Assembly: GCA_020057295.1 (NCBI GenBank)
Contig: JAGVGF010000003.1
Location: 64,001 to 128,000, forward strand
Direction of reading: 5' to 3'
From: an archaeon
Lineage (GTDB): Archaea > Nanobdellota > Nanobdellia > Woesearchaeales > UBA9642
DNA: 64,000 nt
The position numbers were made by a program, and so were the translations under genes. The notes below the pieces were generated by a model that ran no database searches, had not been told where the DNA came from, and saw nothing but the letters and a program-made list of their open reading frames with translations. Shown here one piece after another: positions 9,544 through 43,461 of this stretch (positions within the stretch are counted from its first letter, which is position 1; every line of letters begins with the position of its first letter).

Positions 9544-10251
9544 ATGGTTAAAAATGAAAATTTAAATAAGAAAAAGCTTATGGCATTAAAATTTACAGAC
9601 AGCAATAAAATGTATTCTTATATGTTAGTTGCTTTCTTAGTATTATTAATATTAGATTTGATTGCATATTTTGGTTTTTTAAATAGAATTCCTGATTTTG
9701 CAAACAAATTCGGTTTCTGGATTTTTTATTTGAATATTAGTATCGTCACAATTGGTGGTTCTGTATGGTATTATGTAACTCACAAAGGTTATGTAAGCTG
9801 TATGGCTAGCATGATGATTGGAATGACTATAGGAATGCAAACTGGAATGATGATTGGAGCAGTATTCGGAGCTGTTAATGGATATTTTGTTGGTGCAATG
9901 GTCGGCATGATTCTTGGTGCATTAACAGGAGCGTTAAGCGGTAAAGATAGTATAATGGGATGGCTTCAGGGAATGATGATGGGATTAATGGGTGGAACAA
10001 TGGGTGCAATGATTACTGTAATGATGTTCACAGATAATGTATTATGGTTCATGCCATTCTATACTATACTCAATGTCTTATTGTTATTAGGATTTAATTA
10101 CATGTATTATGATGAAGTTGTAAGAGATAATAAAGAATTAATTAAAACAGATATAGATATTTTCACATTCATATCTGCATGTGTAATAGTAACTACTATC
10201 TTAACTGTTTTAATGATTTATGCACCAAAATCGGTGCTGTTCGGAGGATAA
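9544..10251 (+). CDS. Met/Gly-rich multi-pass membrane protein, probably copper-related
   Basis: Several TM segments with CMASMMIGMTIGMQTGMMIG and GMMMGLMGGTMGAM; operonic with copA. Confidence 0.65.
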   Translation: MVKNENLNKKKLMALKFTDSNKMYSYMLVAFLVLLILDLIAYFGFLNRIPDFANKFGFWIFYLNISIVTIGGSVWYYVTHKGYVSCMASMMIGMTIGMQTGMMIGAVFGAVNGYFVGAMVGMILGALTGALSGKDSIMGWLQGMMMGLMGGTMGAMITVMMFTDNVLWFMPFYTILNVLLLLGFNYMYYDEVVRDNKELIKTDIDIFTFISACVIVTTILTVLMIYAPKSVLFGG

Positions 10252-10252
10252 A

Positions 10253-10849
10253 ATGAAAGATGTTTCAAAAATAATATTAGGAATAGTTGCGAGTTTAATA
10301 GTTATATCGGTGTTAGGACTATCTGCTAAAGCTCTAGTTTCGCCGACATTCTTGTCAACAAACAACTACGGCAATAATGGTGCACAGGTATCGCAAACAC
10401 AAAATACTTTATCAGGAAATACTCAAATTAATACTCAGACATCGCCCTTAGTTCAAGGAAATGTTCAAGAGGTTTCTCTTAAAGTTGTAGGTTCATCATA
10501 TGTTTTGAATCCTTCAGTACTAAAGAAAGGAGTTCCAGTTAGAATGACCGCAGATATTAATAATATGCCTGGTTGTTCTAAAGGTTTTAGAATTCCAGAC
10601 TTTAGTGTTACAAAGTCTATCCGTCCAGGAGATACTGTTGTAGAATTTACTCCTGATAAAACAGGAACATTTACGATTGCGTGTTTTATGAATATGTACC
10701 GTGGAACATTTAGTGTTACTGATGATGGAAGTGCTCCAACTGGAGAAGCGGCAAAGCAAGCAACACAAGTTCAAGCAACAGTTGCAAAACCAAGCGGTGG
10801 CGGATGTACAATGGGTGCGGGTGGCGGTGGCTGCGGTTGTGGTGGATAA
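10253..10849 (+). CDS. Membrane-anchored CupA-like cupredoxin with Gly/Cys tail
   Basis: GGAGG SD; N-terminal TM; PGC and FTIACFMNMYRG (C-x-M-x-M); ends GGGCTMGAGGGGCGCGG. Confidence 0.75.
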   Translation: MKDVSKIILGIVASLIVISVLGLSAKALVSPTFLSTNNYGNNGAQVSQTQNTLSGNTQINTQTSPLVQGNVQEVSLKVVGSSYVLNPSVLKKGVPVRMTADINNMPGCSKGFRIPDFSVTKSIRPGDTVVEFTPDKTGTFTIACFMNMYRGTFSVTDDGSAPTGEAAKQATQVQATVAKPSGGGCTMGAGGGGCGCGG

Positions 10850-13915: not shown

Positions 13916-15223
13916 TTATTCTTGAGGAACGATTTTATCAGAAAGTAATGAGTCTGTTAAATCATCTTTGATGTTTACACTTTTGTGCATTAGTCCTTCC
14001 AAATCTTTTTTTATTTTTCCTACTACTTCTTCATTATCTATCTTTAATATATCGATATTCTTTTGTAATTTGTCAATGTTTAACTTGTGATATTTTATTT
14101 TATCCTCTGTTGCATTGATCCAATACTGTTGTTCAGAAAGATTTAGTGATGCACTATTGTGTGTTATCTTTGCTTGTGCTCTATGTCTCTGATCTTCTAA
14201 TTTTAATATCTTAATTTGTAATGTCTTCAAGTAATCTATTGTTAATTTATCGATAGTGTTTAAACATTTATCTTTATTTTTATCTTTCAAATCGATTTTA
14301 TTATCTTGAATGGCGTTCTTTATATCTTTTAATATTTCTACTATTTGTAAATTAGAATCCTTGATTAATCCGTTCTTTATATCTTCTAAATATTCTTTAA
14401 TTATTTTCTTGTCAGGATTTAAGTAGTAATATTTTTTTAACGGTGTGTCTAAGCATGAAAAGAATTCACCTTCGACTTGTAATACTCTTTTACTTTCCAT
14501 TTCTGATTCTTCTTTTTCTTTTTTGAACGTGTCTAAAGCACGATAATCTGTTCCGGTGGTTATTGTTTTAATTCGTTCATTTAATTTGTCAAGCTTTTCC
14601 TTATGTAGTGATATTTCTCTTTCTTCCTCTAATGTTTGTCTATTGAAATCCTTTATTTTTAGAACATTACCTGTAAAATCCTTGATATCTTTTTGTATAT
14701 TTTTTAATAGTTCTATTCCGTTCTTCTCAAGCATTACTCTTATATCTATTATTAGTTCTTCTAACTCGTGTAGTTTCTTATTTGTTGTTCTTACTTCATT
14801 ATCGAAGAAATGTTGTAGTACGAATATGTTTTTTTGTATGTCGCGATTTAATTGTTCTAGATTATGTGAAAATTGTATACAATAATCGTATGTGTCTAAA
14901 TAACTTTTTGGTACATCGATAGAGCTTACAAAGTGTGAGATTCTTTTAATGTAGTTCTCACGATTACCGTCCATTATATGTATTTCCCGTTCTGGAATGT
15001 TGCTATTCATTAAATGTGCTTTATGTAACCCTCTTAATGACAATATTACTTCCTCTTTTTTGGCGCTTATATCAACAATTTTTGATGTAATACTTCTATT
15101 AATGTATCCTAAACTATCTCTTAGAATAAAATTCATATGTTTATCTATCTTTGACAAAGAAACTTCTTCTGCTTGAGGTATTTCTGTATCTTTCTTAAAC
15201 CGGTCTAGGAATCTCTTAAGCAT
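13916..15223 (-). CDS. Coiled-coil hypothetical protein
   Basis: 435-aa ORF, K/E/L-rich heptad-like pattern. Confidence 0.7.
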   Translation of the reverse strand: MLKRFLDRFKKDTEIPQAEEVSLSKIDKHMNFILRDSLGYINRSITSKIVDISAKKEEVILSLRGLHKAHLMNSNIPEREIHIMDGNRENYIKRISHFVSSIDVPKSYLDTYDYCIQFSHNLEQLNRDIQKNIFVLQHFFDNEVRTTNKKLHELEELIIDIRVMLEKNGIELLKNIQKDIKDFTGNVLKIKDFNRQTLEEEREISLHKEKLDKLNERIKTITTGTDYRALDTFKKEKEESEMESKRVLQVEGEFFSCLDTPLKKYYYLNPDKKIIKEYLEDIKNGLIKDSNLQIVEILKDIKNAIQDNKIDLKDKNKDKCLNTIDKLTIDYLKTLQIKILKLEDQRHRAQAKITHNSASLNLSEQQYWINATEDKIKYHKLNIDKLQKNIDILKIDNEEVVGKIKKDLEGLMHKSVNIKDDLTDSLLSDKIVPQE

Positions 15224-15345
15224 ATTCTAGTGATATGATAAAGATTTAAATGCTTTACTAAAACATCCTACTTGTGATACTATTTTATAGGAGAAACTTT
15301 ATAAAAGATATTAGTTGTCCATAGGCATAGTTGCGGGGTGTTTTT

Positions 15346-16017
15346 ATGCCAAGACCAGATGAATTAGTGTTAGTAGTACAAAACAACGTATTATTTAATG
15401 ATAATGACGGATATTTTGAAGGATTTATGGATGCTTCTAAAGCAGATTATATGTCAACAATTTTAAAAAATCATTCTTTTATGAGACACGATAAAGCAAG
15501 TCTTTTGGCCGGTAAATATAAGCAACCTATAGCTTATTGTGCTATTGTTAATCCTACTACTAAAAAGGTTTACGTGTATACTAGAGCTTCAGGTGCAGAA
15601 GGAGATGCTGCTAATGTTGAAAAATTATTACAAGGCAATATATCTTTTGGCGCTGGTGGTCACATGGTTGAATCAGCTAAAGGAGTTGACGTGATTGTCG
15701 ATAATAAAATAAGAGAGCTTGCTGAAGAAACAGACATACAAGGTTCTAAGCAATTCCAATTCTTCGGATATATTAATAATGATGATGATCGTAATAATGG
15801 TGTCGGTAAGGTTCATTTCGGATTAATGTATTTGGTTATTACTGATGCAACTGTTGTTAGACCACTTGATAAAGAAGCTCAAATCGGCGGGATGGTTCAT
15901 ATTAGTGATTTAGAAAGAACTATCAGAGAATCTAGAAGAAAAGGTTCTAGTGTTATAGTTGAACCATGGTCGGAAATATCTTTCGAACCTCTTATGAGAT
16001 ATTTAGGACATAAATAA
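15346..16017 (+). CDS. Predicted Nudix-family phosphoesterase (COG4112-like)
   Basis: YKQPIAY, SFGAGGHM, RELAEE, GYINND...VGKVHFG, EPWS. Confidence 0.75.
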   Translation: MPRPDELVLVVQNNVLFNDNDGYFEGFMDASKADYMSTILKNHSFMRHDKASLLAGKYKQPIAYCAIVNPTTKKVYVYTRASGAEGDAANVEKLLQGNISFGAGGHMVESAKGVDVIVDNKIRELAEETDIQGSKQFQFFGYINNDDDRNNGVGKVHFGLMYLVITDATVVRPLDKEAQIGGMVHISDLERTIRESRRKGSSVIVEPWSEISFEPLMRYLGHK

Positions 16018-31134: not shown

Positions 31135-32442
31135 ATGAAACATGTAAAGATTCTATTAGAGAACGAACATCTTGAAGGATTATTAATTAAAGAAGATGAT
31201 AAACATTTAGCTCTCAAATTATCTAATGGATATAATATCGGAATAAGTAAAAACAGAATAAAGAAAATTGAAGACATAAATTCTCGTGAAGATTTAGTTA
31301 AAGAACAACATTCCGAAAGGGTGCATAAAGAAATAGTCCAACATGTTTCGAAAGATGCAGTCAGTGATTTGCCTAAAGTTTTAATTTTACATACTGGAGG
31401 AACTATTGCAAGTAAAGTTGATTATCAAACTGGTGCAGTAACTCCTAAATTTACTCCTGAAGAATTGAATTCTATGTTTCCAGAAATAAAAGATATTGCA
31501 AATATAGAGAGTAGATTATTTAGGAATATGGCTTCTGATGATATGAGATTTTCTCATTACAACCTTATCGCAAAAGAGATTGAGAAAGAATTAACTGAAC
31601 ATAAAGATCTAAAAGGAATCATAATTACGCAAGGAACAGACACGATACATTATACGAGTGCAGCTCTTAGCTTTATTTTTGAACATTTACAAATTCCTGT
31701 GGTTATTGTTGGTTCACAACGTAGCTCTGATCGGGGAAGTTCTGATGCGGCAATGAATTTGATTAGTGCTGTAGCATTTATTGCAAATACAAGCCTTAAA
31801 GGAGTGTTTATATGTTTTCATGAAAATATTTCAGATGAATCATGCATAATACTTAACGGTCTTAATGCTAAAAAATTGCATTCATCAAGAAGAGATGCAT
31901 TTAAGCCAGTAAATGTTCCTTCAATCGCAAGGATAGATTATAATACTAAAAATATAGAATATGTTTCAGAACATCCAGAATCATCATTAAATAGTCCAGG
32001 AAAATTAAAATTGCATTTATTTAATGAAGATTTGAAGATTGGAATGTTAGTTTCTCATCCTAATATGTTTGCTGCAGAAATAGAACCTTTCTTGAAAGGA
32101 TTTGATGGAATAATTTTACAAGGAACAGGATTATGTCATTTTCCAATAAATGAAATTGATGAATTTACGAAAGAGCACACTAAAATAAAAGATGTTTTAA
32201 CAGAATTATCTAGTAAAATTCCTGTGGTTATGAGTTTGCAAACAGTTTACGGAAGCGTAAACATGAATGTATATAGGCCAGGAAAAGCATTAATAGAAAT
32301 GGGGATTATAGGAAATTATTCTTCATTGATAACGGAAACCTCGTTCATAAAACTTTCTTGGTTGTTATCGCAAAAACTTGATCCTAAAGAATATTTTATG
32401 AAAGATTTACGAGGAGAATTCTTGGTTAAATCTGTCGAGTAA
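31135..32442 (+). CDS. gatD: Glu-tRNA(Gln) amidotransferase subunit D
   Basis: KLSNGYNIG N-domain, TGGTIASKVDY.TGAV, GTDT, GSQRSSDRGSSD, HSSRRDAF. Confidence 0.93.
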   Translation: MKHVKILLENEHLEGLLIKEDDKHLALKLSNGYNIGISKNRIKKIEDINSREDLVKEQHSERVHKEIVQHVSKDAVSDLPKVLILHTGGTIASKVDYQTGAVTPKFTPEELNSMFPEIKDIANIESRLFRNMASDDMRFSHYNLIAKEIEKELTEHKDLKGIIITQGTDTIHYTSAALSFIFEHLQIPVVIVGSQRSSDRGSSDAAMNLISAVAFIANTSLKGVFICFHENISDESCIILNGLNAKKLHSSRRDAFKPVNVPSIARIDYNTKNIEYVSEHPESSLNSPGKLKLHLFNEDLKIGMLVSHPNMFAAEIEPFLKGFDGIILQGTGLCHFPINEIDEFTKEHTKIKDVLTELSSKIPVVMSLQTVYGSVNMNVYRPGKALIEMGIIGNYSSLITETSFIKLSWLLSQKLDPKEYFMKDLRGEFLVKSVE

Positions 32443-32548
32443 TGCATAATCGCTGTAAAACATTTTTTTAAAGCGAATTAGTCTTATTTTGTCTTCTTTT
32501 ATCTAAATAGACATTTAAAATGCTTATATTACTCTATAAACGTCTTTC

Positions 32549-32673
32549 TTAGTGTTTAAATTACACTATTATATTCTCGAGTACAACAATATTTATATAT
32601 TACTTAGTGTTTACAATACAATAAGCTAATTAAAGTTTGATTAACAAAATACTAAGTGTAAAAGATACACAAA
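32549..32673 (+). promoter_or_regulatory. NAD-operon promoter with four NrtR-like operators
   Basis: TTAGTGT-N7-ACACTAT (32549), TATA TTTATATA (32592), TTAGTGT-N7-ACAATAA (32604), TTAAAGT-N7-ACAAAAT (32630), TAAGTGT-N7-ACACAAA (32653). Confidence 0.75.
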
Positions 32674-32700
32674 GGTTAATTCGAAATCAATGAGGTCAAA

Positions 32701-34080
32701 ATGAAATTAACACATCCAGAAGAAACGGATTTATACAATGAAACAATGGATAATTTAGGTCCGAAAGAAACAGAAACAGGTTATTCAGTATGGCAGGCTA
32801 TTCCACGAGATGTTAACAAATATTTCAAACCACGAGTAATGGCTGGCACTAGAGCAATACTTAGAGATTTCTTAGACAGGAGTGATGGAGGCCTGGAACT
32901 ATGCATACTACAAGATGGTATGCCCTTTCTTCCAGGAGATCCTGTCGTTCAAGTAATAGGAGAAAAAAGTCAAGCAAGAAAATTAGAAGCTAAAATTCTA
33001 TCAACATTATTCTATATGACAGAAGTAGCAACAAGAACGAAAGAGTTAATAGATTTAGTAGGCGCTGACAGATTAATAGAAGTAGGAATGAGAGGATCAG
33101 CTCCAGGCGCATGGACATACAGTGCAGAAGCATTTTTGATTGGCGGAGGAAAATTAACTTCTAACACAACACTTCGAAACGTTCCCGGATTAGTTGAAGG
33201 AAGAGATTACAAATTAGTTGGAACAACAGGACACTCACTATATATGGAATACTTAGCAGCAGGATATACACAAAAAAATACATTCAAGATAATATTAGAA
33301 AAATTTGAGAAAAATTATTCTGGAAGACCATGTTCAATATTAGTAGATACGGTTGAACCAATGCTTGGAATAAACCAAGCATTAGATGTAATTAAGGAAA
33401 GAAAAAAAATCAGCGGACAGACACACTATATAAGATTAGATTCAGGAGATTTACTCAGTCAAGCGATTTATGCACTAAGAGAAACAGTTGAAGAAATACC
33501 TGATTTCAAAGTAATAATTGAAGACGGATTAACTGCAGATAAAATAAAACATTACGAAGCAGAAATACAAAAAGCAGGCTTCGATCCAAAGAAACACATC
33601 ATATATGGTGCAGGAGGATACTTCTTTAACAACATAACAAGAGACAGTAATGGTGCATGGGCATATAAGCCATCAGTCTATAGAACAACAAATAACGGAG
33701 ACGTAGATGTAGTAAAACTTTCTGGAAATATACTAAAGCAATCATTGCCAGGTCTAATAGGAATATCTTATGATGTTCTTGGAAAGAGATTGAATGTTCA
33801 TAACAGATATGCAGCAAACAGGATTATTACAGGAGAAACTTCTCAGGCGTATCTTGACAAAAGCATTGATGAATTAAAAAATGAAGCAAAATATTACTGG
33901 GGAAAAATGCAAGATATGCCAAAGAAATGGTATGCTGCGTATGATTTAAGTGACGAATTAACACAGATGCAGCATGATGCAGTAAAAAGAACTTACGAGT
34001 TCGGATACAAAACTATTTCATCAGAAGATTCAACACAATCTAAACAGAATCTAAAATTAGTTGTAAACGATTCTGTGTGA
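32701..34080 (+). CDS. pncB: Nicotinate phosphoribosyltransferase
   Basis: TDLY, EVGMRG, TSN, GTTGHS (phospho-His site), LVDT, IRLDSGDL, YK..VKLS..K.SLPG. Confidence 0.8.
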   Translation: MKLTHPEETDLYNETMDNLGPKETETGYSVWQAIPRDVNKYFKPRVMAGTRAILRDFLDRSDGGLELCILQDGMPFLPGDPVVQVIGEKSQARKLEAKILSTLFYMTEVATRTKELIDLVGADRLIEVGMRGSAPGAWTYSAEAFLIGGGKLTSNTTLRNVPGLVEGRDYKLVGTTGHSLYMEYLAAGYTQKNTFKIILEKFEKNYSGRPCSILVDTVEPMLGINQALDVIKERKKISGQTHYIRLDSGDLLSQAIYALRETVEEIPDFKVIIEDGLTADKIKHYEAEIQKAGFDPKKHIIYGAGGYFFNNITRDSNGAWAYKPSVYRTTNNGDVDVVKLSGNILKQSLPGLIGISYDVLGKRLNVHNRYAANRIITGETSQAYLDKSIDELKNEAKYYWGKMQDMPKKWYAAYDLSDELTQMQHDAVKRTYEFGYKTISSEDSTQSKQNLKLVVNDSV

Positions 34081-34122
34081 ATATAATTTGATAATATTAT
34101 GGCTGACAAAATAACAAATAAC

Positions 34123-34143
34123 TTAGTGTTAATTTAACAATAA
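34123..34143 (+). promoter_or_regulatory. NrtR-like operator upstream of pncA
   Basis: TTAGTGT-TAATTTA-ACAATAA, same half-sites as the 32604 site. Confidence 0.7.
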
Positions 34144-34171
34144 GAAAAGAAGATTATTGGAGGAAAATAAA

Positions 34172-34858
34172 ATGAAAACAAACGACTTAAAAGAAATGAG
34201 CAAAGAAAATACATTTTTTTACATGGTAGATATGCAAAACGATTTCGTGAAACCAGGAGGAGCATTATACGTTCCAAAAGCAGAAACGCTAATATCGACG
34301 ATACAAAAATTACAAGGATATGCAAGAAAGAACGGGATAAGAGAATACGCAAGCGTTGACAATCATTTCTACAGTGATGCGGAGATATCTGATAATCCTA
34401 CATGGTCTACAACATTCCCTCCACATTGTATGGATGGAACAGTAGGACAAAAGATTGTTGATGAATTAACAATTCCAGATGTATTTCCTATTGTAAACAA
34501 GATTGATGAAAAGGGAACAAAAAACGAAATCAATATTTATGATTTAAAGAGCGGCTTAACATATAATAGAAACGTTGTTTTCAGTAAGCAATCTACAGAT
34601 GTAACGACGAATCCACATTTTGCAGCAGCGATGAGTTATCTGAAAAGCGAAGGCGTAAGAAATGTGGTAGTATATGGTGTGGCAACAGATTATTGTGTAA
34701 AAGATGCAGTATCGGGTCTTCTTGCAAATGGTCTTGACGTATTTGTTGCCCAAGATGCAATAACAGGCATAGTTCCAGAGAACTGCAAAAAAACACTGGA
34801 CGATTTCATAACAAAGAATGTCAAGCTGATACAAACTTCAGACTTGTTAAGTCAATAA
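34172..34858 (+). CDS. pncA: Nicotinamidase (isochorismatase family)
   Basis: VDMQNDF..GGAL.V, D.H, FPPHC, K, GVATDYCV. Confidence 0.88.
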   Translation: MKTNDLKEMSKENTFFYMVDMQNDFVKPGGALYVPKAETLISTIQKLQGYARKNGIREYASVDNHFYSDAEISDNPTWSTTFPPHCMDGTVGQKIVDELTIPDVFPIVNKIDEKGTKNEINIYDLKSGLTYNRNVVFSKQSTDVTTNPHFAAAMSYLKSEGVRNVVVYGVATDYCVKDAVSGLLANGLDVFVAQDAITGIVPENCKKTLDDFITKNVKLIQTSDLLSQ

Positions 34859-34876
34859 AAACTAAAGGTGATTTCA

Positions 34877-35806
34877 ATGACAAACAAAAATTTAACAAAT
34901 AAAAATTCGATGAGAAAAATAAATTTACCTCACATGAATCCTAAAATTGTAAGTGAAGAGATAGGATCATTCGTTATCGAGACAGTAAATTCTGTAAATG
35001 CATCAGGATGTGTCATAGGATTATCGGGTGGTATTGACTCTAGCACGACTGTTGCCTTAATAAAAAATGCATTCGATATCTACAACAGCAGTCATGAGAA
35101 AAAATTAGAAGTTGTAGGATACATATTGCCCTCTAAAATCAACAGCGCAAAAGATACAGAAGATGGTGTGCGTATAGCTGACATTTTGAAAGTACGTTAT
35201 GAAGTGATAAATCTTGACAGAGCTATTGAGGGATTCAAGACAACAAATCCTGAGGCATTTGAAAGAAGATATGATCAAGGAAATATGATTTCTAGAATAA
35301 GAGCAAACGTTCTATCAACAAAAGCAGCAATAGAAAATAAAATAATTGCAGGCACAGGCAATAAGGATGAAGATTTTGGTGTAGGATATTATACTTTATT
35401 TGGAGATGGAGCAGTTCATCTAAGTCCTATAGGCGGGTTATCAAAAAGACTTGTGAGACAAATGGCGGAGCATTTAGGATTGCCGAAAGATTTAGTGTAT
35501 AGAGAACCTACAGCTGGATTGGAACATGGACAAACAGATTTCACAGATTTAGGGTATAAATATGATGTTGTGGAACTAGTTACAGAAGGCATTCATCAAG
35601 GATTTAGTGTTGACGAATTGATATCTCATGAACAAATAAAACCTTTGGTCGAATCGCAGATAAAAATGCTGACGAACCCTAAATTACAAACTGTAGACGC
35701 AGTAGTTTATGATATTATGCGAAGACATGAAATCGCAAATGCAAAGGTAAAGATAATACATCCGCCAGCAGCGCCTATAACATTAGGTTATAATGGATAT
35801 AGTTAA
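34877..35806 (+). CDS. nadE: NH3-dependent NAD+ synthetase
   Basis: GLSGGIDS, GN..SRIR, GTGNKDE..GYYTLFGDG, PTAGL..GQTD; no glutaminase domain. Confidence 0.92.
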   Translation: MTNKNLTNKNSMRKINLPHMNPKIVSEEIGSFVIETVNSVNASGCVIGLSGGIDSSTTVALIKNAFDIYNSSHEKKLEVVGYILPSKINSAKDTEDGVRIADILKVRYEVINLDRAIEGFKTTNPEAFERRYDQGNMISRIRANVLSTKAAIENKIIAGTGNKDEDFGVGYYTLFGDGAVHLSPIGGLSKRLVRQMAEHLGLPKDLVYREPTAGLEHGQTDFTDLGYKYDVVELVTEGIHQGFSVDELISHEQIKPLVESQIKMLTNPKLQTVDAVVYDIMRRHEIANAKVKIIHPPAAPITLGYNGYS

Positions 35807-35822
35807 AATCGGTGTGATTAAA

Positions 35823-36869
35823 ATGAAACAAATTGAAGAGCTCGTTGGAAAAAGCTATATGACATGTTCAGCATGTATGTCTGTATGGGCTGATGGTTTG
35901 AGCTGGGCCAATGCACATACTGAAGCAGTGACAACCAAACTTTCCGAGGCAGATAATATTATTGTATTATCCTGTCAAGTTACGGATTTAGCTGTACTGA
36001 GTGATTTACGAACCATAGAAAAATATCATTCAATGTTTCCTGAGAAGAATTTTTTCATTAGCGGATGTCTGGCAAAACGCGAAGATGTTTCATTGCCAAG
36101 TTTTGCTGAAAGATTAGATACTCCGCGAGAGAATTATCAATTCATAACTAATCGTCGACTTGTGAATTTCGAAAAACCTTTTTGGACTCCAGAATTTAGT
36201 GAACAAGATTCAGACAAGGTTGATGGACATCTATTCAGAGATATGTATCCATTGCGTATAAGCAAGGGTTGTCCAAAAAAGTGTTCTTATTGTACTATAA
36301 GAATTACACGCGGAGATTTCGAGAAATTAGAAACATCACTCTTGGAGAAAGAATTCTTGAAATTTGATGATATACTATTAATTGCAGACAGCCCGACGGT
36401 TAGTCAAATCAAACAATGGTATGGCATTGCATTGAAACATCAAAAACCTTTTTCGATAAGAAATGTCGAACCTTCTGTGACTGTGGCGTGTCGTGAAGAA
36501 TTAAATGATTTGGCAGATAAAGGATTGTTAAAGGTTTATCATTCTCCTGTTCAGAGTTCAAATCCCGAAGTTTTACTAGATATGCGTCGTCCTGTAAATG
36601 CGACTTTAGAAACTATGGCTATAGCTAGTGAATTAAAAAATAAAGGTGTGTATATAGCGACTAATATCATAATCGATTATAAAAACTATTCTCAAGATTT
36701 TAGCAAGATATATGCATTGTATGATTATGTTAGTTGGAATCCTCTATGGGATGGTGTTTGGAATAGAGATAAGGCCGAGAAAAGATTTGATTTGTATATT
36801 AATTCAGGGATAGTTCCTGGAGAAGTTGAAAGAGCACTTGTAAATTGTGGAAAATCATTATCAAAATAA
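35823..36869 (+). CDS. MiaB/RimO-like radical SAM methylthiotransferase lacking a TRAM domain
   Basis: N-terminal three-Cys MTTase pattern (ACMSV, ADNIIVLSCQV, ISGCLA), ISKGCPKKCSYC..RG, HSPVQS....VL.DMRR. Confidence 0.8.
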   Translation: MKQIEELVGKSYMTCSACMSVWADGLSWANAHTEAVTTKLSEADNIIVLSCQVTDLAVLSDLRTIEKYHSMFPEKNFFISGCLAKREDVSLPSFAERLDTPRENYQFITNRRLVNFEKPFWTPEFSEQDSDKVDGHLFRDMYPLRISKGCPKKCSYCTIRITRGDFEKLETSLLEKEFLKFDDILLIADSPTVSQIKQWYGIALKHQKPFSIRNVEPSVTVACREELNDLADKGLLKVYHSPVQSSNPEVLLDMRRPVNATLETMAIASELKNKGVYIATNIIIDYKNYSQDFSKIYALYDYVSWNPLWDGVWNRDKAEKRFDLYINSGIVPGEVERALVNCGKSLSK

Positions 36870-36896
36870 AATTTAATAATTATTCGGAGGCAAAGT

Positions 36897-37901
36897 ATGA
36901 ATATAGGATTATATGGTGGAAGTTTTAATCCCGTGCATAATGCACATTTAGATATTATTAAAGATATCTTGTCAAAAAAACTCGTTGATCAAGTATGGAT
37001 TCTGCCTTGTAAGAATCATGCATTTGACAAAGAGTTGGCACCAATTGATAATCGTTTGGAAATGTTAGAGTTAGCTTTATCAGATTTAAAATCTGATTCT
37101 CATCTTCCTGTGAGAGTAGATTTGACAGAATTAGAGATGTCAGGAAAGAGTTATACTTCTGATACTGTAAAATTATTACGAGAAAAATATTCTTCTGAAA
37201 AATATAGATTTAGTTTTATTTGCGGTGCTGATGTCTTGCCCACATTTGATAAATGGCATGATGTTGAATATATTAAAAAAACCCTTCCAATAATTTTAGT
37301 CAAACGTCCAGGATACATTATTAATTCAACTATAAGAGAAAATTTGCTCCTAGATGCAATAATAGAAAATGATAGCAATATATCTTCTTCTATAATAAGA
37401 GAGCGTATAGCGTTGAATAAATCTCTCGCGGATCTTGTTCCGCAAAAAGTAGAAGAATATATAAATATTCATAAATTATACTCTAACATGGTCAGATATA
37501 CTAATCCTGCAAGTACTGTAGATTTAATAGTTCCAACACAAAAAGGAATAGTTTTCATTAAAAGAAAACATCCTCCATTCAAGGGTAAATGGGCTTTTCC
37601 AGGAGGATATCTTAACACTGATAAAGAGACTTTAGAAGAAGCAGGTGTCAGAGAGCTTTTTGAAGAAACACATCTTGTCGCAAAGCCAGAAGACTTAGTG
37701 TTGATGGGTGCATATTCTGAACCTAAACGCGATCCGCGCGGACATGTCATTGCTCATGCTTATATCGTAACAAAATTTTCTGGGACATTAAAAGCAGATG
37801 ATGATGCAGCTGAAATCGCTGTGTTTAAAATCAAACCTGAAGATTTGGCTTTTGACCATTCAAGAGTATATGATGATTACATTAAAAAATATGGTGTATA
37901 A
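36897..37901 (+). CDS. nadD: Nicotinate-nucleotide adenylyltransferase fused to a Nudix (ADP-ribose pyrophosphatase-like) domain
   Basis: GGSFNPVHNAH, SYT.DT, GAD, ISSSIIR; C-terminal WAFPGG...RELFEET and RDPR. Confidence 0.88.
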   Translation: MNIGLYGGSFNPVHNAHLDIIKDILSKKLVDQVWILPCKNHAFDKELAPIDNRLEMLELALSDLKSDSHLPVRVDLTELEMSGKSYTSDTVKLLREKYSSEKYRFSFICGADVLPTFDKWHDVEYIKKTLPIILVKRPGYIINSTIRENLLLDAIIENDSNISSSIIRERIALNKSLADLVPQKVEEYINIHKLYSNMVRYTNPASTVDLIVPTQKGIVFIKRKHPPFKGKWAFPGGYLNTDKETLEEAGVRELFEETHLVAKPEDLVLMGAYSEPKRDPRGHVIAHAYIVTKFSGTLKADDDAAEIAVFKIKPEDLAFDHSRVYDDYIKKYGV

Positions 37902-37902
37902 C

Positions 37903-38772
37903 ATGAATATAAAAAATGTTTTAATAACCACTAAGCAAACAGCCTTAGAATATTATAGGCAAAATTATGATGTTCCGGAGGAAGTAATTCCTGCTGATTT
38001 GTTAGTGTCTAAAAAGCGAGAGCATTCTGAGCATTATAATTCTATAAAAATAATTAAAGATGCTTTAGAGAAACATAACATATCTTATCATGTTGTGTAC
38101 ATGCCTTATGCTGCGCACGAGGAGTTTATTGGCAGAGATCTTGTTATAGCTGTTGGTGGCGATGGTACTGTATTAAATACGGCTAGATATATCAGAGATA
38201 ATACTCCTTTACTAACTGTGAAATCAGAAGGTGATAGTGTGGGTGCTTTGTGTACTATTAAAGCCAAAGACTTTGTTGAAACTTTTGAAAAGATACTTTC
38301 TGGAAATTTTAGGATAGAATTATGGAATAGAGCTGAAGGAAAATTTGGTAACAAAACAGACATAGCTCTTAATGAAATAGCTATAGGAACCAAACATTTT
38401 AACGGTATGGCCACTTATGAAGTAAAGTTTGGTGATAAGAAAGAAATTCAGAGAAGCAGTAAAATAATTGTCAGTACAGGTGCAGGATCAACAGGATGGT
38501 ATAATAATATTCATAACAGTAACGGCGTATTTCATCCATCAATATCGGAATTAAGGTTTACAGTATCAGAGAGTATCAAGTCGCATAATTATAAGATGTT
38601 GCATGGTCATGTCATGCCCGGAGATGTTTTAGAGATAGTGTCTTTGATGGATACTGAAGGAACTATAAGTTTTGATGGTGATAAAAATAAGCGCATGTAT
38701 AATTTTCCTATTGGTCAAAAGATTTGTATAAAAATTTCTGACAAGCCGTTACATATGATTTTTACTAAATAA
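37903..38772 (+). CDS. nadK: NAD kinase
   Basis: GGDGT, ALNE, STGAGSTGW, FDG. Confidence 0.82.
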   Translation: MNIKNVLITTKQTALEYYRQNYDVPEEVIPADLLVSKKREHSEHYNSIKIIKDALEKHNISYHVVYMPYAAHEEFIGRDLVIAVGGDGTVLNTARYIRDNTPLLTVKSEGDSVGALCTIKAKDFVETFEKILSGNFRIELWNRAEGKFGNKTDIALNEIAIGTKHFNGMATYEVKFGDKKEIQRSSKIIVSTGAGSTGWYNNIHNSNGVFHPSISELRFTVSESIKSHNYKMLHGHVMPGDVLEIVSLMDTEGTISFDGDKNKRMYNFPIGQKICIKISDKPLHMIFTK

Positions 38773-38823
38773 TAATTCAGTTTAGTTATAGTTTATTTAG
38801 CTGTATATCAAGATGAGATAAAA

Positions 38824-39285
38824 ATGAAATATATTGAATGCCCGGAAAATTATGAGAAAGAATTAAATTCGCCAGTTTCTCTCTTCATTGCTGGAGGTAT
38901 CACTGGTTGTACTAATTGGCAGAACAAATTTATTGAGCTGCTTAAAGATGAAGATGTTGTTTTATTAAATCCTAGAAGAAAGATATTCTCTGAAAATGAT
39001 CCTAGCATTTCTGAACAGCAGATACTGTGGGAACATGTTTATCTAAAAAGTGCTGATGCGACTTCTTTTTGGTTTACTCCAGAAACGTTATGTCCTATAA
39101 CTCTATTCGAGTTAGGAAAACAACTTTCATTGAACAAGCCGTTGTTTGTAGGCATACATCCTGAATATGCTAGGAAAAAGGATTTGGAGATTCAGGTGAA
39201 ACTTATAAGACCAGATATTAAGATAGTATACGATCTAGAATCTCTTTCTTCTCAAGTAAAGAACTGGCTTAAGCAAAAAATTTAG
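38824..39285 (+). CDS. Nucleoside 2-deoxyribosyltransferase-like protein
   Basis: LFIAGGI...WQ, NPRR, QILWE, CPITLFELG. Confidence 0.8.
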   Translation: MKYIECPENYEKELNSPVSLFIAGGITGCTNWQNKFIELLKDEDVVLLNPRRKIFSENDPSISEQQILWEHVYLKSADATSFWFTPETLCPITLFELGKQLSLNKPLFVGIHPEYARKKDLEIQVKLIRPDIKIVYDLESLSSQVKNWLKQKI

Positions 39286-39317
39286 ATGTACAAATTTTTA
39301 TAATTATATTCTTTTGT

Positions 39318-40817
39318 TTAATCTACTTGTTTTTTCTCTGCTGCTAGAATCATATTAGTAGGAGGATATTCTATTTTCTCTAAGTTCTTTCCGTTCATTA
39401 CGTATAAATTAACTTTTCCCGTATACATTTTATCTATAATATATTTACTACTAAATGTTTTTGAACCATTAACTACTCTATATCCGATTTTGTTCAATTT
39501 TTTTGTCCAATCACTAAAACTCCAGAATCCAAATTCTTCGTGCATTTCACTCTTCCAATTATCCGTGTAGTTCATTTTACTTATGTACTCGTATGCATTC
39601 TGTAAGGTTGTTTTGATATATGTTTTGTTTTTTATAACTGTTTTAATATAGGTTATTTTTCTCTTATTGAAATCTTTGACAAACTGGAAAAATTTATGGT
39701 ATGTTGATAGTTGGTTTATTTTTCCAGAACTTTTTCCATCTGTGCTATTTAAATCCATATAGACTATTTTCTCTCCATGTTCTGGTCCGACCACATCACG
39801 TATTATTATTCTTCCACCATCTAATAACTGGTTATGCGTATGTTCCAAAACTTTTACAAGTTCTTTTTCACCAATATATGAGTACACTTCATGAAGAACT
39901 GAAGAGTATATAAATGAATTTATAGTGTTATTCTTAAAATTCTGATCCATGATATTTCTTCTATAAAAAAACACGAAAGGATTGGAGTAATCCTGTAACT
40001 TACAATATTCGTAGAATTTTCTTGTAGCTTCAATGCCTATTATATCTGATTCTGGAAAATTCTTTGCTAACAAGTTAATCAACGCTCCAGTTCCGCATCC
40101 AACATCAACAATTTTTCCTTCGCAAATGAAAGGCTTTATATCATTAAATTTGAATTCCATATTCTGGTCCATTCCTTTAGCATATGTTCCATAATCTCTG
40201 GTGTCTGTTATATCTGCATCTTCATTTAGTAATCCGTCCGAAAATAATTCTATTATTAAATCTCCTACATTATATTCTAAGAATATGTCTTGGGTTGCTG
40301 ATGAAGCATATTTTTTCCAATTATTGTCATTTTTCCAGTTTTTTCCTGATTTAACTAATATATTGATTACCTCAAAAGGTCTTAATGTTGAATACTTATT
40401 TTTTCTTTCATCTAAAAGTTCTGCTGGTAAATTTTTGAATTTTAATTTCCTAAATTGTTTAATAACATCTGGTGTAGAACAAGCAAGTATAGTGTTTGCT
40501 GGAGTTAATTTTTCCTGTCCTTGATAGAATATCTGACTTATTATGTATTTAGCGAATTTCTCTGTCTGTTGAACATCTGGTACAGGATATATTTTAACTT
40601 CACAGCCGAGATCCCTAGATAATTTTTCTATTGCCATAGATCTTAAGTATAAAGGCACAGGATTTCTTCTGGTGTTCGAATGATTTGCCGATGTTATTGC
40701 AAATATTATTTTATCAACTTTTAATCCATCAATACCTTGATCAACTATTGATCTTAAGTAAGTGTATTGAAAATTTGTTAACATATGATGTCTTCCAGGG
40801 AATAATATGCTTACCAT
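39318..40817 (-). CDS. NadM-like nucleotidyltransferase-fold domain fused to a class I SAM-dependent methyltransferase
   Basis: N-terminal FPGRHHMLTNFQ and ITSAN.SNTRRNP; C-terminal VDVGCGTG, SSVLHEVYSY, GGRIIIRD. Confidence 0.75.
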   Translation of the reverse strand: MVSILFPGRHHMLTNFQYTYLRSIVDQGIDGLKVDKIIFAITSANHSNTRRNPVPLYLRSMAIEKLSRDLGCEVKIYPVPDVQQTEKFAKYIISQIFYQGQEKLTPANTILACSTPDVIKQFRKLKFKNLPAELLDERKNKYSTLRPFEVINILVKSGKNWKNDNNWKKYASSATQDIFLEYNVGDLIIELFSDGLLNEDADITDTRDYGTYAKGMDQNMEFKFNDIKPFICEGKIVDVGCGTGALINLLAKNFPESDIIGIEATRKFYEYCKLQDYSNPFVFFYRRNIMDQNFKNNTINSFIYSSVLHEVYSYIGEKELVKVLEHTHNQLLDGGRIIIRDVVGPEHGEKIVYMDLNSTDGKSSGKINQLSTYHKFFQFVKDFNKRKITYIKTVIKNKTYIKTTLQNAYEYISKMNYTDNWKSEMHEEFGFWSFSDWTKKLNKIGYRVVNGSKTFSSKYIIDKMYTGKVNLYVMNGKNLEKIEYPPTNMILAAEKKQVD

Positions 40818-40838
40818 ACCATTATAAAAACCTAAACA

Positions 40839-40869
40839 TTTAAATACCTTATTGTTTTATAGACATGAA
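40839..40869 (+). promoter_or_regulatory. nrtR promoter with NrtR-like operator
   Basis: TATA TTTAAATA 40839-40846 followed by TTATTGT-TTTATAG-ACATGAA 40849-40869. Confidence 0.6.
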
Positions 40870-40902
40870 GTCAAATTAAAGCTGAAAATTAAAGGTGTTG
40901 GG

Positions 40903-41562
40903 ATGGATAACGAGTTGTCTAAATATGAAAAGCCTTCTGTAACTGTAGATACGGTTATTTTTAGTATAAAAGAAAATGATTTGAAAGTTTTATTAGTAAA
41001 AAGATCTTCTTCTCCGTTTAAGGATAAGTGGGCTATTCCTGGAGGATTTGTCAAGATTGATCAATCTCTAGAAGATGCTGCAAAATTTAAATTAGAAGAA
41101 AAGACAGGCGTTAAAGATGTATATTTAGAACAATTATACTCTTTTGGCAGTCCTAAAAGAGATCCTAGGGGACGAGTTATAACAGTAACATATTTTGCAT
41201 TAATAAATTCTGATAATGTAAAGCTTAAAGGCGATGATGCTAAGTGGTTTTCCATTACTGAATTACCACAAGTTGCATTCGATCATAATACAATATTAGA
41301 TTATGCATTAAAAAGATTAAAATGGAAATTTGAGTATACCGTTGTAGCATTTTCTTTACTACCTAAAAAATTCACTATGACTCAAGTTCAAGATTTATAT
41401 GAAATTGTTTTTAATCAAAAATTTGATAAGAGAAATTTTAGAAAGAAAATTTTATCTCTTAATATCCTTGAAGAACAGGAAGTTATGAGGAACGTTTCAT
41501 TTAGACCGCCACAATTATATTCTCTAAAAGCAAATATTGGAGAGATAGTTAATATTTTGTAA
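40903..41562 (+). CDS. nrtR: Nudix-related transcriptional regulator
   Basis: Nudix fold with degenerate box (AAKFKLEEKTG), LEQLYSF..RDPR, AFDH, C-terminal wHTH FTMTQV..DKRNFRKK..RPPQLY. Confidence 0.88.
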   Translation: MDNELSKYEKPSVTVDTVIFSIKENDLKVLLVKRSSSPFKDKWAIPGGFVKIDQSLEDAAKFKLEEKTGVKDVYLEQLYSFGSPKRDPRGRVITVTYFALINSDNVKLKGDDAKWFSITELPQVAFDHNTILDYALKRLKWKFEYTVVAFSLLPKKFTMTQVQDLYEIVFNQKFDKRNFRKKILSLNILEEQEVMRNVSFRPPQLYSLKANIGEIVNIL

Positions 41563-41583
41563 ATCGCTTATTTTGTGAACATT

Positions 41584-43461
41584 ATGAATAACACTCTAGA
41601 TTATAAAAAGATTGGATTGAAGGCCGGTTTGGAGATTCATCAGCAGCTTGATACGAAGAAATTATTTTGTGATTGTCCTTCTGAAATGAGAGATGATTCT
41701 CCTGATAAGACTGTTAAAAGAGTTTTGAGAGCGATTGCTGGAGAGACAGGAGATGTTGATATTGCCGCGAAAGCAGAAATGGAAAAAGGCAAAAATTTTG
41801 TGTTCGAATATTATGATGACACAACATGTCTTGTGGAATTGGATGAAGAACCTCCACATGCGATTAATAATGATGCTTTGAATGTTGTTCTGCAATTTTC
41901 TAAAATTGTTGATGCACAAGTTGTTGATCAAGTTCATGTTATGAGAAAGACTGTTGTTGATGGAAGTAATGTTTCAGGATTTCAAAGGACAGCTCTTGTT
42001 GCAAGAAATGGAATAATGCCTGTAGATATCTCAGAAGGATCTGAGTCTAAATCGGAATCAAGAATTTTGAATGTTGCTATTGATACTTTATGTATTGAAG
42101 AGGATGCTGCTCGTATAATTAAAAGAGAAGCAGGACAAGACATTTACCGATTAGATAGACTAGGAATTCCATTAATTGAAATTGCAACAGGTCCTGACAT
42201 GAAAACTCCTAAAGAGGTCAAAGAGGTTGCTGCACACATTGGAATGTTGCTCAGAAGTACAGGAAAAGTAAAGAGAGGTTTAGGAACAATCAGACAAGAT
42301 GTGAATGTTTCTATCGAGAGTGGTGCAAGGGCAGAAATTAAAGGTGTTCAAGATTTAAGATTAATCGATACTGTTGTTGAGTTGGAAGCATTACGTCAAG
42401 TTAACATGCTTAAATTACGTGAAGAGATGCGTGTAAAAGGAATTAAAATCGAAAATTTAAATGATGAAGTTAAAGATTTTACTGAAGATTTCAGAACTGT
42501 TCAAAAAGGGTTCATAAAAACAGGAATAGATTCTGGACTTAAAATATACGGTAAATCTTACGCATTATTCAAAGGATTCTTTGGTTATGAGATAAATCCT
42601 GGCAGAAGATTTGGCACAGAATTAAGTGATAGAATTAAAGTTTTAGGATTAAACGGTCTTATTCACTCGGACGAAGTTTTAGAAAAATACGGAATAATTG
42701 ATATAGTTCAACATATTTATCATAAATGTGAATTGGGTTCAGATGATGGCATAATATTTATTCTAGGTTCTGAAGATAAATGTTTATTAGCATTCAAAAA
42801 AATTGATGATTCAATAAAATATTTTTTAGAAAAAGGTTTATCTAAAGAAGTAAGAAATGCGAAAGAAGACGGAACATCACAATTCTTAAGACCTATGCCG
42901 GGAAGTAGTAGAATGTATCCAGAAACAGATATTCCGGTAATACATCCAACATTAGAAGGTGTTGGGATGCCAGAATTAATTAAGGATAAGACAGAAAGAT
43001 TTGTTAAAGATTATGGATTACCAAAACAGGTTGCTAAAGAATTAATCTTTGAACCAAATTTCGAACTATTCGTTAAGAAATATCCTCAAATAAAGGCGGT
43101 AACTATTGCTGAAGGTTTAGATAGTATGTTAAAAGATCTTAAAACAAGATACTCCTTGGATGTTCAACCATCATTCGAACAATACGATCAAATATTTTCT
43201 AAATTAAATACGGGCGATATTGCAAAGGAAGCATTATTTGAGATTTTACTTGCTATTGGAAAAAACGAACAAGGAAAAATTATTGATTTCTCAAAATATC
43301 AAACTAATGAAGATGAAGTTATAGAATTTATTACTCGAACAATCTCTGAAAAACCTGGATTGAATAGCAATGCTATTATGGGTTTAGTAATGAAAGAATA
43401 TCGTGGAAAGTTTTCAGGACAAAAAATACTTGAATTAATTAAGAAATACAAAGGAGAATAA
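41584..43461 (+). CDS. gatE: Glu-tRNA(Gln) amidotransferase subunit E
   Basis: GLEIHQQL, DEEPPH, DGSNVSGFQRT, RLDRLGIPLIEI, RGLGTIRQDVN, RMYPETD. Confidence 0.95.
   Translation: MNNTLDYKKIGLKAGLEIHQQLDTKKLFCDCPSEMRDDSPDKTVKRVLRAIAGETGDVDIAAKAEMEKGKNFVFEYYDDTTCLVELDEEPPHAINNDALNVVLQFSKIVDAQVVDQVHVMRKTVVDGSNVSGFQRTALVARNGIMPVDISEGSESKSESRILNVAIDTLCIEEDAARIIKREAGQDIYRLDRLGIPLIEIATGPDMKTPKEVKEVAAHIGMLLRSTGKVKRGLGTIRQDVNVSIESGARAEIKGVQDLRLIDTVVELEALRQVNMLKLREEMRVKGIKIENLNDEVKDFTEDFRTVQKGFIKTGIDSGLKIYGKSYALFKGFFGYEINPGRRFGTELSDRIKVLGLNGLIHSDEVLEKYGIIDIVQHIYHKCELGSDDGIIFILGSEDKCLLAFKKIDDSIKYFLEKGLSKEVRNAKEDGTSQFLRPMPGSSRMYPETDIPVIHPTLEGVGMPELIKDKTERFVKDYGLPKQVAKELIFEPNFELFVKKYPQIKAVTIAEGLDSMLKDLKTRYSLDVQPSFEQYDQIFSKLNTGDIAKEALFEILLAIGKNEQGKIIDFSKYQTNEDEVIEFITRTISEKPGLNSNAIMGLVMKEYRGKFSGQKILELIKKYKGE

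Follow-up and report, generated by a model that had tools for sequence, protein, structure and literature searches.

A TRAM-less radical SAM family related to methylthiotransferases and its recurrent place among NAD recycling genes

The 64,000 nucleotides analysed here, hereafter called the window (assembly GCA_020057295.1, contig JAGVGF010000003.1, positions 64,001 to 128,000), belong to a complete archaeal genome of 1.2 Mb and carry a gene for a radical S-adenosylmethionine (SAM) protein that resembles the methylthiotransferases (MTTases) MiaB and RimO and lacks their C-terminal TRAM domain. The initial annotation of this stretch had placed the gene between nadE and nadD, where it indeed lies, and had argued from the loss of TRAM and from the operon position that the substrate is a small molecule such as the adenine of nicotinamide adenine dinucleotide (NAD). 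What I infer from the present analysis, for the chemistry as for the substrate and at a probability of roughly 0.4, is that the enzyme (methyl)thiolates an adenine nucleotide of the NAD family. A NAD-type adenine is favoured because the NAD context of the gene is recurrent and regulated, because it is paralleled by that of an RlmN-like family, because the genome contains a normal e-MtaB, and because the protein family has an acidic isoelectric point (pI).

Two ATG codons, which give proteins of 358 and 348 residues, are equally possible starts of the gene because some homologues begin at the equivalent methionine (Table 1; residue numbers refer to the 358-residue form). The protein matches Radical_SAM (PF04055, 36.3 bits for a cut-off of 29.5) and, barely over its cut-off of 27, UPF0004 (PF00919, 27.9 bits), while no Pfam match to TRAM is found at E ≤ 0.01. 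In an alignment of 29 homologues, which are 46–67% identical to the window protein, the three cysteines of the putative auxiliary cluster (C28, C61, C92) and those of the CxxxCxxC motif (C160, C164, C167) are invariant. So are, near the C-terminus, a family-specific motif, DYVSWNP.W, and the AE.R that follows it, the tail as a whole being written DYVSWNPLWDGxW...AE.R. An AlphaFold model of the protein (predicted local distance difference test score 92.6, predicted template modelling score 0.90) has MiaB as its top structural match (7mjy_A; Z 22.8, root-mean-square deviation 3.7, 299 residues aligned, 18% identity) and RimO as the second (PDB 4jc0, Z 21.3). The matches that come next are B12-type radical SAM methylases and AprD4, and since all families other than MiaB and RimO score Z ≤ 17.2, the model indicates a two-domain MTTase core fold. 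The alignment with MiaB covers residues 17–358 of the model and residues 16–390 of the 448-residue chain, so that the TRAM domain of MiaB, which lies beyond about residue 390, is without counterpart in the window protein. Profile searches and structure prediction, the checks suggested at the outset, thus bear out the original description of a protein of about 348 residues that has all three UPF0004 cysteines and the CxxxCxxC motif, and no TRAM.

A search of a 5.8-billion-protein collection yielded 482 homologues at E ≤ 0.001. The nearest named ones among the matches listed come from Candidatus Woesearchaeota and Pacearchaeota assemblies, and the 120 matches listed range from 203 to 432 residues; since most of them have 325–370 residues, the missing TRAM is a trait of the family and not a truncation. 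When 1.84 billion cluster representatives were searched with a profile, 73 proteins were retrieved at E ≤ 1e-30, with a clear score gap before the next ones (≤114 bits); none of the proteins at E ≤ 1e-30 is a long fusion (757–2160 residues), which is weak evidence. A tree (IQ-TREE quick search, LG+G4) was built from 87 rows, comprising 39 family members, 47 of the nearest outgroups, labelled by NCBIfam, and the second MTTase of the genome itself; it holds no MiaB row. The 39 family rows occupy one side of a branch with an SH-aLRT of 100, while the e-MtaB, MtaB and RimO rows together form a separate starred clade; the RimO rows make a clade of their own. Judged from sequence, the family is a discrete clade outside e-MtaB, MtaB and RimO, and it is set apart from MiaB by score alone. 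Clustering with the canonical tRNA enzymes, named at the outset as a ground for refutation, is thus not seen with regard to e-MtaB, MtaB or RimO. Placement by profile is weak: the window protein reaches 72.5 bits with TIGR00089, the MiaB/RimO umbrella model of NCBIfam, whose cut-off is 251, and 37–48 bits with the equivalogs of the subfamilies (MiaB, MtaB, e-MtaB, RimO), whose cut-offs are 315–357.

Such divergence is compatible with a change of chemistry. The enzyme might catalyse another radical reaction on a NAD-related metabolite (C-methylation, thiolation without methylation, or a rearrangement), the N-terminal cluster helping to bind the substrate or to transfer electrons and not carrying a methylthio group. 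Besides the low TIGR00089 score, the replacement of the GFPGE motif of canonical MTTases by IIDYK(D/N), the absence of some 20 residues of the core and the rank of B12-type radical SAM methylases and AprD4 as next-best structural matches all speak for it, and a hint of multi-step nucleotide chemistry comes from two loci, in which the gene for a MoaA/viperin-like radical SAM protein of 290 residues immediately precedes the family gene, between pncA and nadE (L053:5253-6122 and L070:7132-8001; L-numbers designate loci). The three auxiliary-cluster cysteines are nevertheless invariant, as in MTTases, and the margin by which MiaB and RimO are the best structural matches is clear, which makes this alternative quite unlikely.

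The gene neighbourhood of the family was examined at 104 loci (12 in species-representative genomes, 12 on viral contigs and 80 in metagenomes) by clustering the neighbouring open reading frames (ORFs) without prior labels and naming the recurrent clusters by Pfam afterwards. Over 105 places, the window included, all of the most frequent clusters proved to be NAD or ADP-ribose genes: NadE (29 occurrences), Nudix/NrtR/NadD (27), NAPRT (19), PncA (16), PnuC (14), NAD kinase (14), NadR-like (13), PF15891 (10) and Prs-like (7), with ADP-ribosylglycohydrolase (5+3), a second isochorismatase cluster (6) and NAMPT (4) recurring less often. Hidden Markov models built from these clusters were then used to count NAD genes within five ORFs on either side, in the 104 places that have at least one neighbour. 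By this measure a NAD gene is present in 39 places, 26 of which have three kinds or more; the immediate neighbour is a NAD gene in 35 of the 104, and 172 of the 732 neighbouring ORFs are NAD-related. On a tree of 100 family members, NAD context changes 7 times, and at least three of these changes are forced by starred branches. It is found in the archaeal clade and in L004/L055, and again in L007, L009/L010, L065/L079 and L094, which lie inside an otherwise phage-type clade. The sets of NAD genes differ between branches, NAPRT/PncA/NadE in some and NAMPT/Prs in others, and the context is retained despite reshuffled gene orders. Such islands also contain Macro, PARG, ARH, MazG and CinA genes, together with genes for a nucleoside hydrolase and for a RuBisCO-like protein of form III. 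The last two occur in one archaeal island, L029, as an inosine-uridine nucleoside hydrolase (9947-10738) and a homologue of the RuBisCO large subunit (13980-15473); together they are possibly a route of AMP/ribose salvage fed by ADP-ribose hydrolysis.

NrtR proteins are a family of ADP-ribose-responsive repressors, and the window encodes one at the end of the NAD island. The palindrome TAGTGT-N7-ACACTA is found in the window seven times at two mismatches or fewer, for 3.2 expected, four of the seven being inside the island (Table 1). In about 1.01 Mb of collected places it occurs 46 times at one mismatch or none, and the gene next downstream is NAPRT in 12 cases, PncA in 4 and the radical SAM gene in 5. 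In the latter cases the box stands at position -118 (L004/L055), 0 (L030/L031) or -5 (L039) with respect to the radical SAM gene, that is, in three lineages. I infer from these sites that the radical SAM gene belongs to an ADP-ribose-responsive NrtR regulon. Published NrtR sites are 21-bp palindromes with a GT-N7-AC core, according to the accessible part of PMC2330246, and the window locus has both an NrtR gene and palindromes with this core. The palindrome also marks L002-L004, L008, L028-L034, L037-L040, L053, L055, L070 and L123-L125, which are NAD islands that belong to these archaea or lie on certain contigs labelled bacterial, and could be used to map the whole regulon.

RlmN and MiaB are the two enzyme types known for functionalising C2 of adenine in RNA. 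An RlmN/Cfr-like gene adjoins the family gene in L027 (763-1677) and lies inside the NAD cluster of L039 (9226-10038). Its product matches positions 73-343 of the 355 in the TIGR00048 profile with 104.9 bits, and PDB 6fz6 with an E value of 3e-21 from chain residue 85 on; as the matches start at these positions, this family is devoid of the N-terminal domain of RlmN. The L027 copy retains the cysteine motifs CCS...GCPVGCIFC and GGGCGQL. This family is common in large phages (L131-L167). NAD salvage genes are found within 6 kb of the RlmN/Cfr-like gene in 23 of 37 viral loci, many of which are closely related and stem from a single metagenome, and RtcB in two further loci; the gene stands between PncA and NadE in L133 and between Prs and NAMPT in L159. 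None of the five phage records in which both radical SAM families were sought contains the two together. The presence in NAD salvage modules of a MiaB-like and of an RlmN-like enzyme, both stripped of the RNA-binding module, is the strongest single argument for a NAD-type adenine as the target.

These observations can be accommodated in the following scheme. The family would descend from the MiaB/RimO methylthiotransferases as a mobile two-cluster radical SAM clade, spread in phages and small archaea, that has lost the substrate-binding TRAM domain and carries a short conserved C-terminal tail instead; in cells, it would be an optional member of an NrtR-controlled operon for the recycling of NAD and ADP-ribose. 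The CxxxCxxC cluster would cleave SAM to give the 5'-deoxyadenosyl radical, and the N-terminal three-cysteine cluster, provided that it assembles, would carry a sulfur or methylthio group. This group would be transferred to a C-H position, most likely C2 of the adenine, of NAD, nicotinic acid adenine dinucleotide (NaAD), ADP-ribose or a derivative, neither A37 of tRNA nor ribosomal protein S12 being the substrate. The idea of a small-molecule, NAD-type substrate thus gains from the spread of NAD context over at least three branches, from the NrtR-type operators and from the RlmN-like parallel, while the identity of the substrate is still conjectural. The argument first given for it fares less evenly, for the link with NAD extends beyond a single operon, but TRAM loss is not unique to this family and the gene is optional.

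Several points weigh against the proposal that a NAD-type adenine is the target. Known MTTases are slow and have scarce macromolecules as substrates, so modification of a millimolar NAD pool is unlikely. No MTTase is known to act on a small molecule: the ANME-1 enzyme failed to modify F430, as stated in the accessible part of PMC10702137. The locus counts overstate independence because many loci are near-duplicates. Several outgroup clusters likewise stop matching the TIGR00089 profile near its position 360 and are hence TRAM-less, and since other TRAM-less MTTase-like groups exist, TRAM loss alone is no pointer to NAD. At E ≤ 1e-40 the family is present in only one of 301 genomes of the phylum, that of the window, and in none of 8 of the same genus. 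Clear NadE orthologues were detected in just 3 of 40 relatives searched, and these three hold a similar NAD cluster (NrtR, NAPRT, PncA, NadE, Nudix/NadD, and NAD kinase or PF15891) without the radical SAM gene. As these clusters lack it and a single genome in 301 carries it, the gene is an optional accessory of NAD salvage rather than one of its steps. In addition, 65 of the 104 places (about 60%) have no NAD gene nearby and are phage-like, with small co-directional ORFs, terminase, integrases, YopX, HNH and Tad4, and among five large viral records bearing the gene only one has a NAPRT/NAMPT homologue anywhere. Finally, several phage-type copies adjoin RNA-repair genes, which would fit an RNA substrate.

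The latter observation bears on an alternative in which the enzyme modifies RNA without a TRAM clamp, be it A37 or another adenine of tRNA or rRNA, or NAD-capped or ADP-ribosylated RNA. The family would then act in phage and archaeal modules of RNA repair or RNA protection, and the NAD genes would merely share a counter-defence neighbourhood with it. RNA ligases are found near the gene in five loci (L019, L024, L045, L066, L087), RtcB in three (L016, L071, L104), HAD_SAK_2 in four (L069, L071, L074, L104), Thg1 in L018 and L083, RlaP in L081, TROVE in L054 and a protein with an RF-1 domain in L016. Moreover, the characterised close structural relatives, RimO excepted, act on C2 of adenine in RNA, and Bacillus subtilis chimeras indicate that substrates are discriminated outside TRAM, as described in the accessible part of PMC2952846. 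An RNA target does not account, by contrast, for NAD context in at least three branches, nor for the NrtR-type boxes that immediately precede the gene in three lineages. The genome also encodes, on contig 4, another UPF0004 protein of 462 residues (UPF0004, Radical_SAM and TRAM, PF01938) that groups with e-MtaB, and since this TRAM-bearing enzyme is present, ordinary tRNA methylthiolation is probably covered elsewhere. The median pI is 6.0 for the family versus 9.0 for the 14 canonical MTTases compared, and no member seen is fused to an RNA-binding domain. On balance, an RNA substrate is unlikely, while deserving serious consideration.

The same phage contexts, in many of which the gene stands alone, might also be explained by RimO-like methylthiolation of a protein, either a universal host protein or an enzyme that makes or consumes NAD, for a stand-alone gene implies a target common to the hosts, and RimO shows that an enzyme of this fold can modify a protein. 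No partner protein is conserved across contexts, though, and RimO, whose rows form a clade of their own, binds its protein substrate through the TRAM domain that is absent here, so a protein substrate has a low probability. A last explanation holds that the NAD neighbourhood reflects the hitch-hiking of a mobile gene that has no functional link with NAD, or that the gene is decaying. It would account for the sporadic distribution, for the insertion of the island at a variable spot between gatD and gatE, and for the loss of CxxxCxxC in one subclade member (P0164). It is most improbable, given that active-site residues are invariant across members that are 41–86% identical, that NAD context persists through rearrangements of gene order and that the gene is immediately preceded by operator-like sites.

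If a NAD-type adenine is indeed the target, one may speculate further that two unrelated radical SAM enzymes of the adenine-C2 type, one MiaB-like and the other RlmN-like, modify the adenine of NAD or ADP-ribose in phages and episymbiotic archaea, and that the resulting 2-methylthio- or 2-methyl-NAD or nucleotides derived from them constitute a private or defence-resistant pool of pyridine nucleotides or disarm immune signals made from NAD. I regard this extension as rather doubtful. As far as the accessible parts of the literature go, the turnover of NAD and ADP-ribose is now a main front in the conflict between phages and the NADase defences of bacteria, and the family is a candidate for an additional component of the NAD-centred counter-defence of phages. 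The closest ESM-Atlas cluster is labelled 74% viral. Among the cultured phages of INPHARED, the sole tblastn match is weak and partial (25% identity, 62% coverage) and no annotated phage homologue was found; no PHROGs v4 family was retrieved at E ≤ 1e-5 with the three members queried. About 1 kb upstream of the gene on one phage-like contig, an ORF resembling Tad4, an inhibitor of type I Thoeris (L005:1640-2044), hints at an anti-defence neighbourhood. Two other neighbours of family genes are a phage RtcB with an intein (L016:4687-6315) and an IMP dehydrogenase with a Hint domain (L021:10317-11813).

A few family members and relatives depart from the standard architecture. P0164, in which CxxxCxxC is missing from the alignment, belongs to a divergent subclade with P0168, P0169, P0175 and P0184, and may be catalytically dead or repurposed. 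P0124 (475 residues) has a C-terminal WDGH domain (PF25311, 123.9 bits); there is no other WDGH-like ORF in the collected loci, no relevant literature on WDGH was found, and a search of the window's genome gave no WDGH match, as did the control, which likewise matched nothing. Further TRAM-less MTTase-like groups (P0214-P0268), of 355-375 residues or of 400-440 residues with an insert, score below the TIGR00089 cut-off.

In the window, the NAD island of about 9 kb (32443-41574) is inserted between gatD and gatE (Table 1). The end of nadE, stop codon included, shares 14 nt with the radical SAM ORF in its long form. The spot between gatD and gatE is variable among relatives: the two genes are directly adjacent in a genome of the same family (L130), while in the same genus they are separated by NrtR only in L127, gatE begins about 1.3 kb past gatD in L129, and no match to gatE or NrtR is present beside gatD within the short loci fetched for L126 and L128. 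The fusion of an NMNAT-like region to a class I SAM methyltransferase, the second SAM-using enzyme of the island, recurs in the NAD islands of L001, L007, L037 and L124.

Table 1. Radical SAM gene, surrounding NAD island and NrtR-type boxes in the window
Feature	Position	Strand	Remarks
TRAM-less MTTase-like radical SAM gene	35793..36869	+	358 aa, or 348 aa from the alternative start at 35823
Auxiliary-cluster Cys codons of radical SAM gene	35874, 35973, 36066	+	
CxxxCxxC codons of radical SAM gene	36270, 36282, 36291	+	
C-terminal motif DYVSWNPLW	36723-36749	+	family-specific
gatD	31135..32442	+	left island border
NrtR-type palindromes TAGTGT-N7-ACACTA	32550-32568, 32605-32623, 32654-32672	+	0, 1 and 2 mismatches; upstream of NAPRT-like gene
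NAPRT-like (nicotinate phosphoribosyltransferase-like) gene	32701..34080	+	459 aa; PF04095; NF006695 86.8 bits, under cut-off
Fourth NrtR-type box	34124..34142	+	1 mismatch; between NAPRT-like gene and pncA
Nicotinamidase PncA-like gene	34157..34858	+	isochorismatase fold
NadE, NH3-dependent NAD synthetase	34868..35806	+	TIGR00552 163.9 bits, cut-off 63.65
NadD (nicotinic acid mononucleotide adenylyltransferase) fused to Nudix	36897..37901	+	TIGR00482 147.4 bits, cut-off 112.45
NAD kinase ORF	37798..38772	+	likely start Met 37903, right after nadD stop, as read from the translation
Nucleoside 2-deoxyribosyltransferase-like protein	38824..39285	+	PF15891
NMNAT-like N-terminal region fused to class I SAM methyltransferase	39318..40817	-	499 aa
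NrtR (Nudix + winged-helix)	40852..41562	+	PF21906 78.7 bits; NF050029 195 bits, below cut-off 400
gatE	41575..43461	+	right island border; named by similarity to relatives' genes beside gatD

What is new here is the architecture of a two-cluster radical SAM enzyme derived from MTTases, along with its regulatory and genomic setting, to which a new substrate class should probably be added. Full-text literature (supplements aside) yielded no description of this family or of a TRAM-less MTTase of this type, nor of any radical SAM enzyme as part of NrtR regulons or phage NAD reconstitution pathways (NARP), and in a survey of jumbo phages (PMC7824862) radical SAM, MiaB and NAMPT do not occur. The clade is well defined, has hundreds of members and is a concrete candidate for new radical SAM substrate chemistry. 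Should the speculative reading with two adenine-modifying enzymes prove true, a natural modification of NAD would come to light, and with it a methylthiotransferase for small molecules, the first of its kind; if RNA turns out to be the substrate, the family would still be novel as an RNA modifier that lacks TRAM, is regulated by NrtR and resides in NAD islands.

On the side of characterised enzymes, the MTTases described to date all have A37 of tRNA or ribosomal protein S12 as their substrate, as far as the accessible parts of the literature tell. MiaB, which methylthiolates C2 of i6A37 in tRNA (PDB 7mjv-7mjz), shares with the family the UPF0004 three-cysteine site and the CxxxCxxC core; it has a TRAM domain and GFPGE, whereas the window protein has neither, reaches 37 bits with TIGR01574 for a cut-off of 355, and, unlike MiaB, has a C-terminal tail of its own and a NAD gene context. 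The same two-cluster core is found in MtaB and e-MtaB (tRNA t6A37; TIGR01579 and TIGR01578), from which the window protein is separated by its scores (48 bits, for cut-offs of 357 and 315) and by the branch with an SH-aLRT of 100. RimO, which modifies an aspartate of ribosomal protein S12, has the same fold and proves that the scaffold accepts a non-RNA substrate, but it retains a TRAM domain adapted to S12 binding, which the window protein (46 bits, cut-off 357) lacks. RlmN and Cfr, the C2 and C8 adenine methylases of rRNA and tRNA, use a methyl-cysteine mechanism, belong to another radical SAM subfamily and are unrelated to the family; they offer a parallel, since RlmN-like proteins that lack the N-terminal domain are encoded in the same NAD neighbourhoods. 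On the pathway side, the partners of the radical SAM gene are the NAD-rebuilding modules of NARP1-3 and of NrtR regulons, namely NAMPT/Prs/NMNAT-Nudix, PnuC with NadR-like, NAPRT/PncA/NadE, and NrtR. In the accessible parts of the NARP descriptions 'radical SAM' is never mentioned, and 'radical' and 'MiaB' are likewise absent from that of PMC2330246; the same sources describe such modules as rebuilding NAD from nicotinamide, nicotinamide riboside or ADP-ribose.

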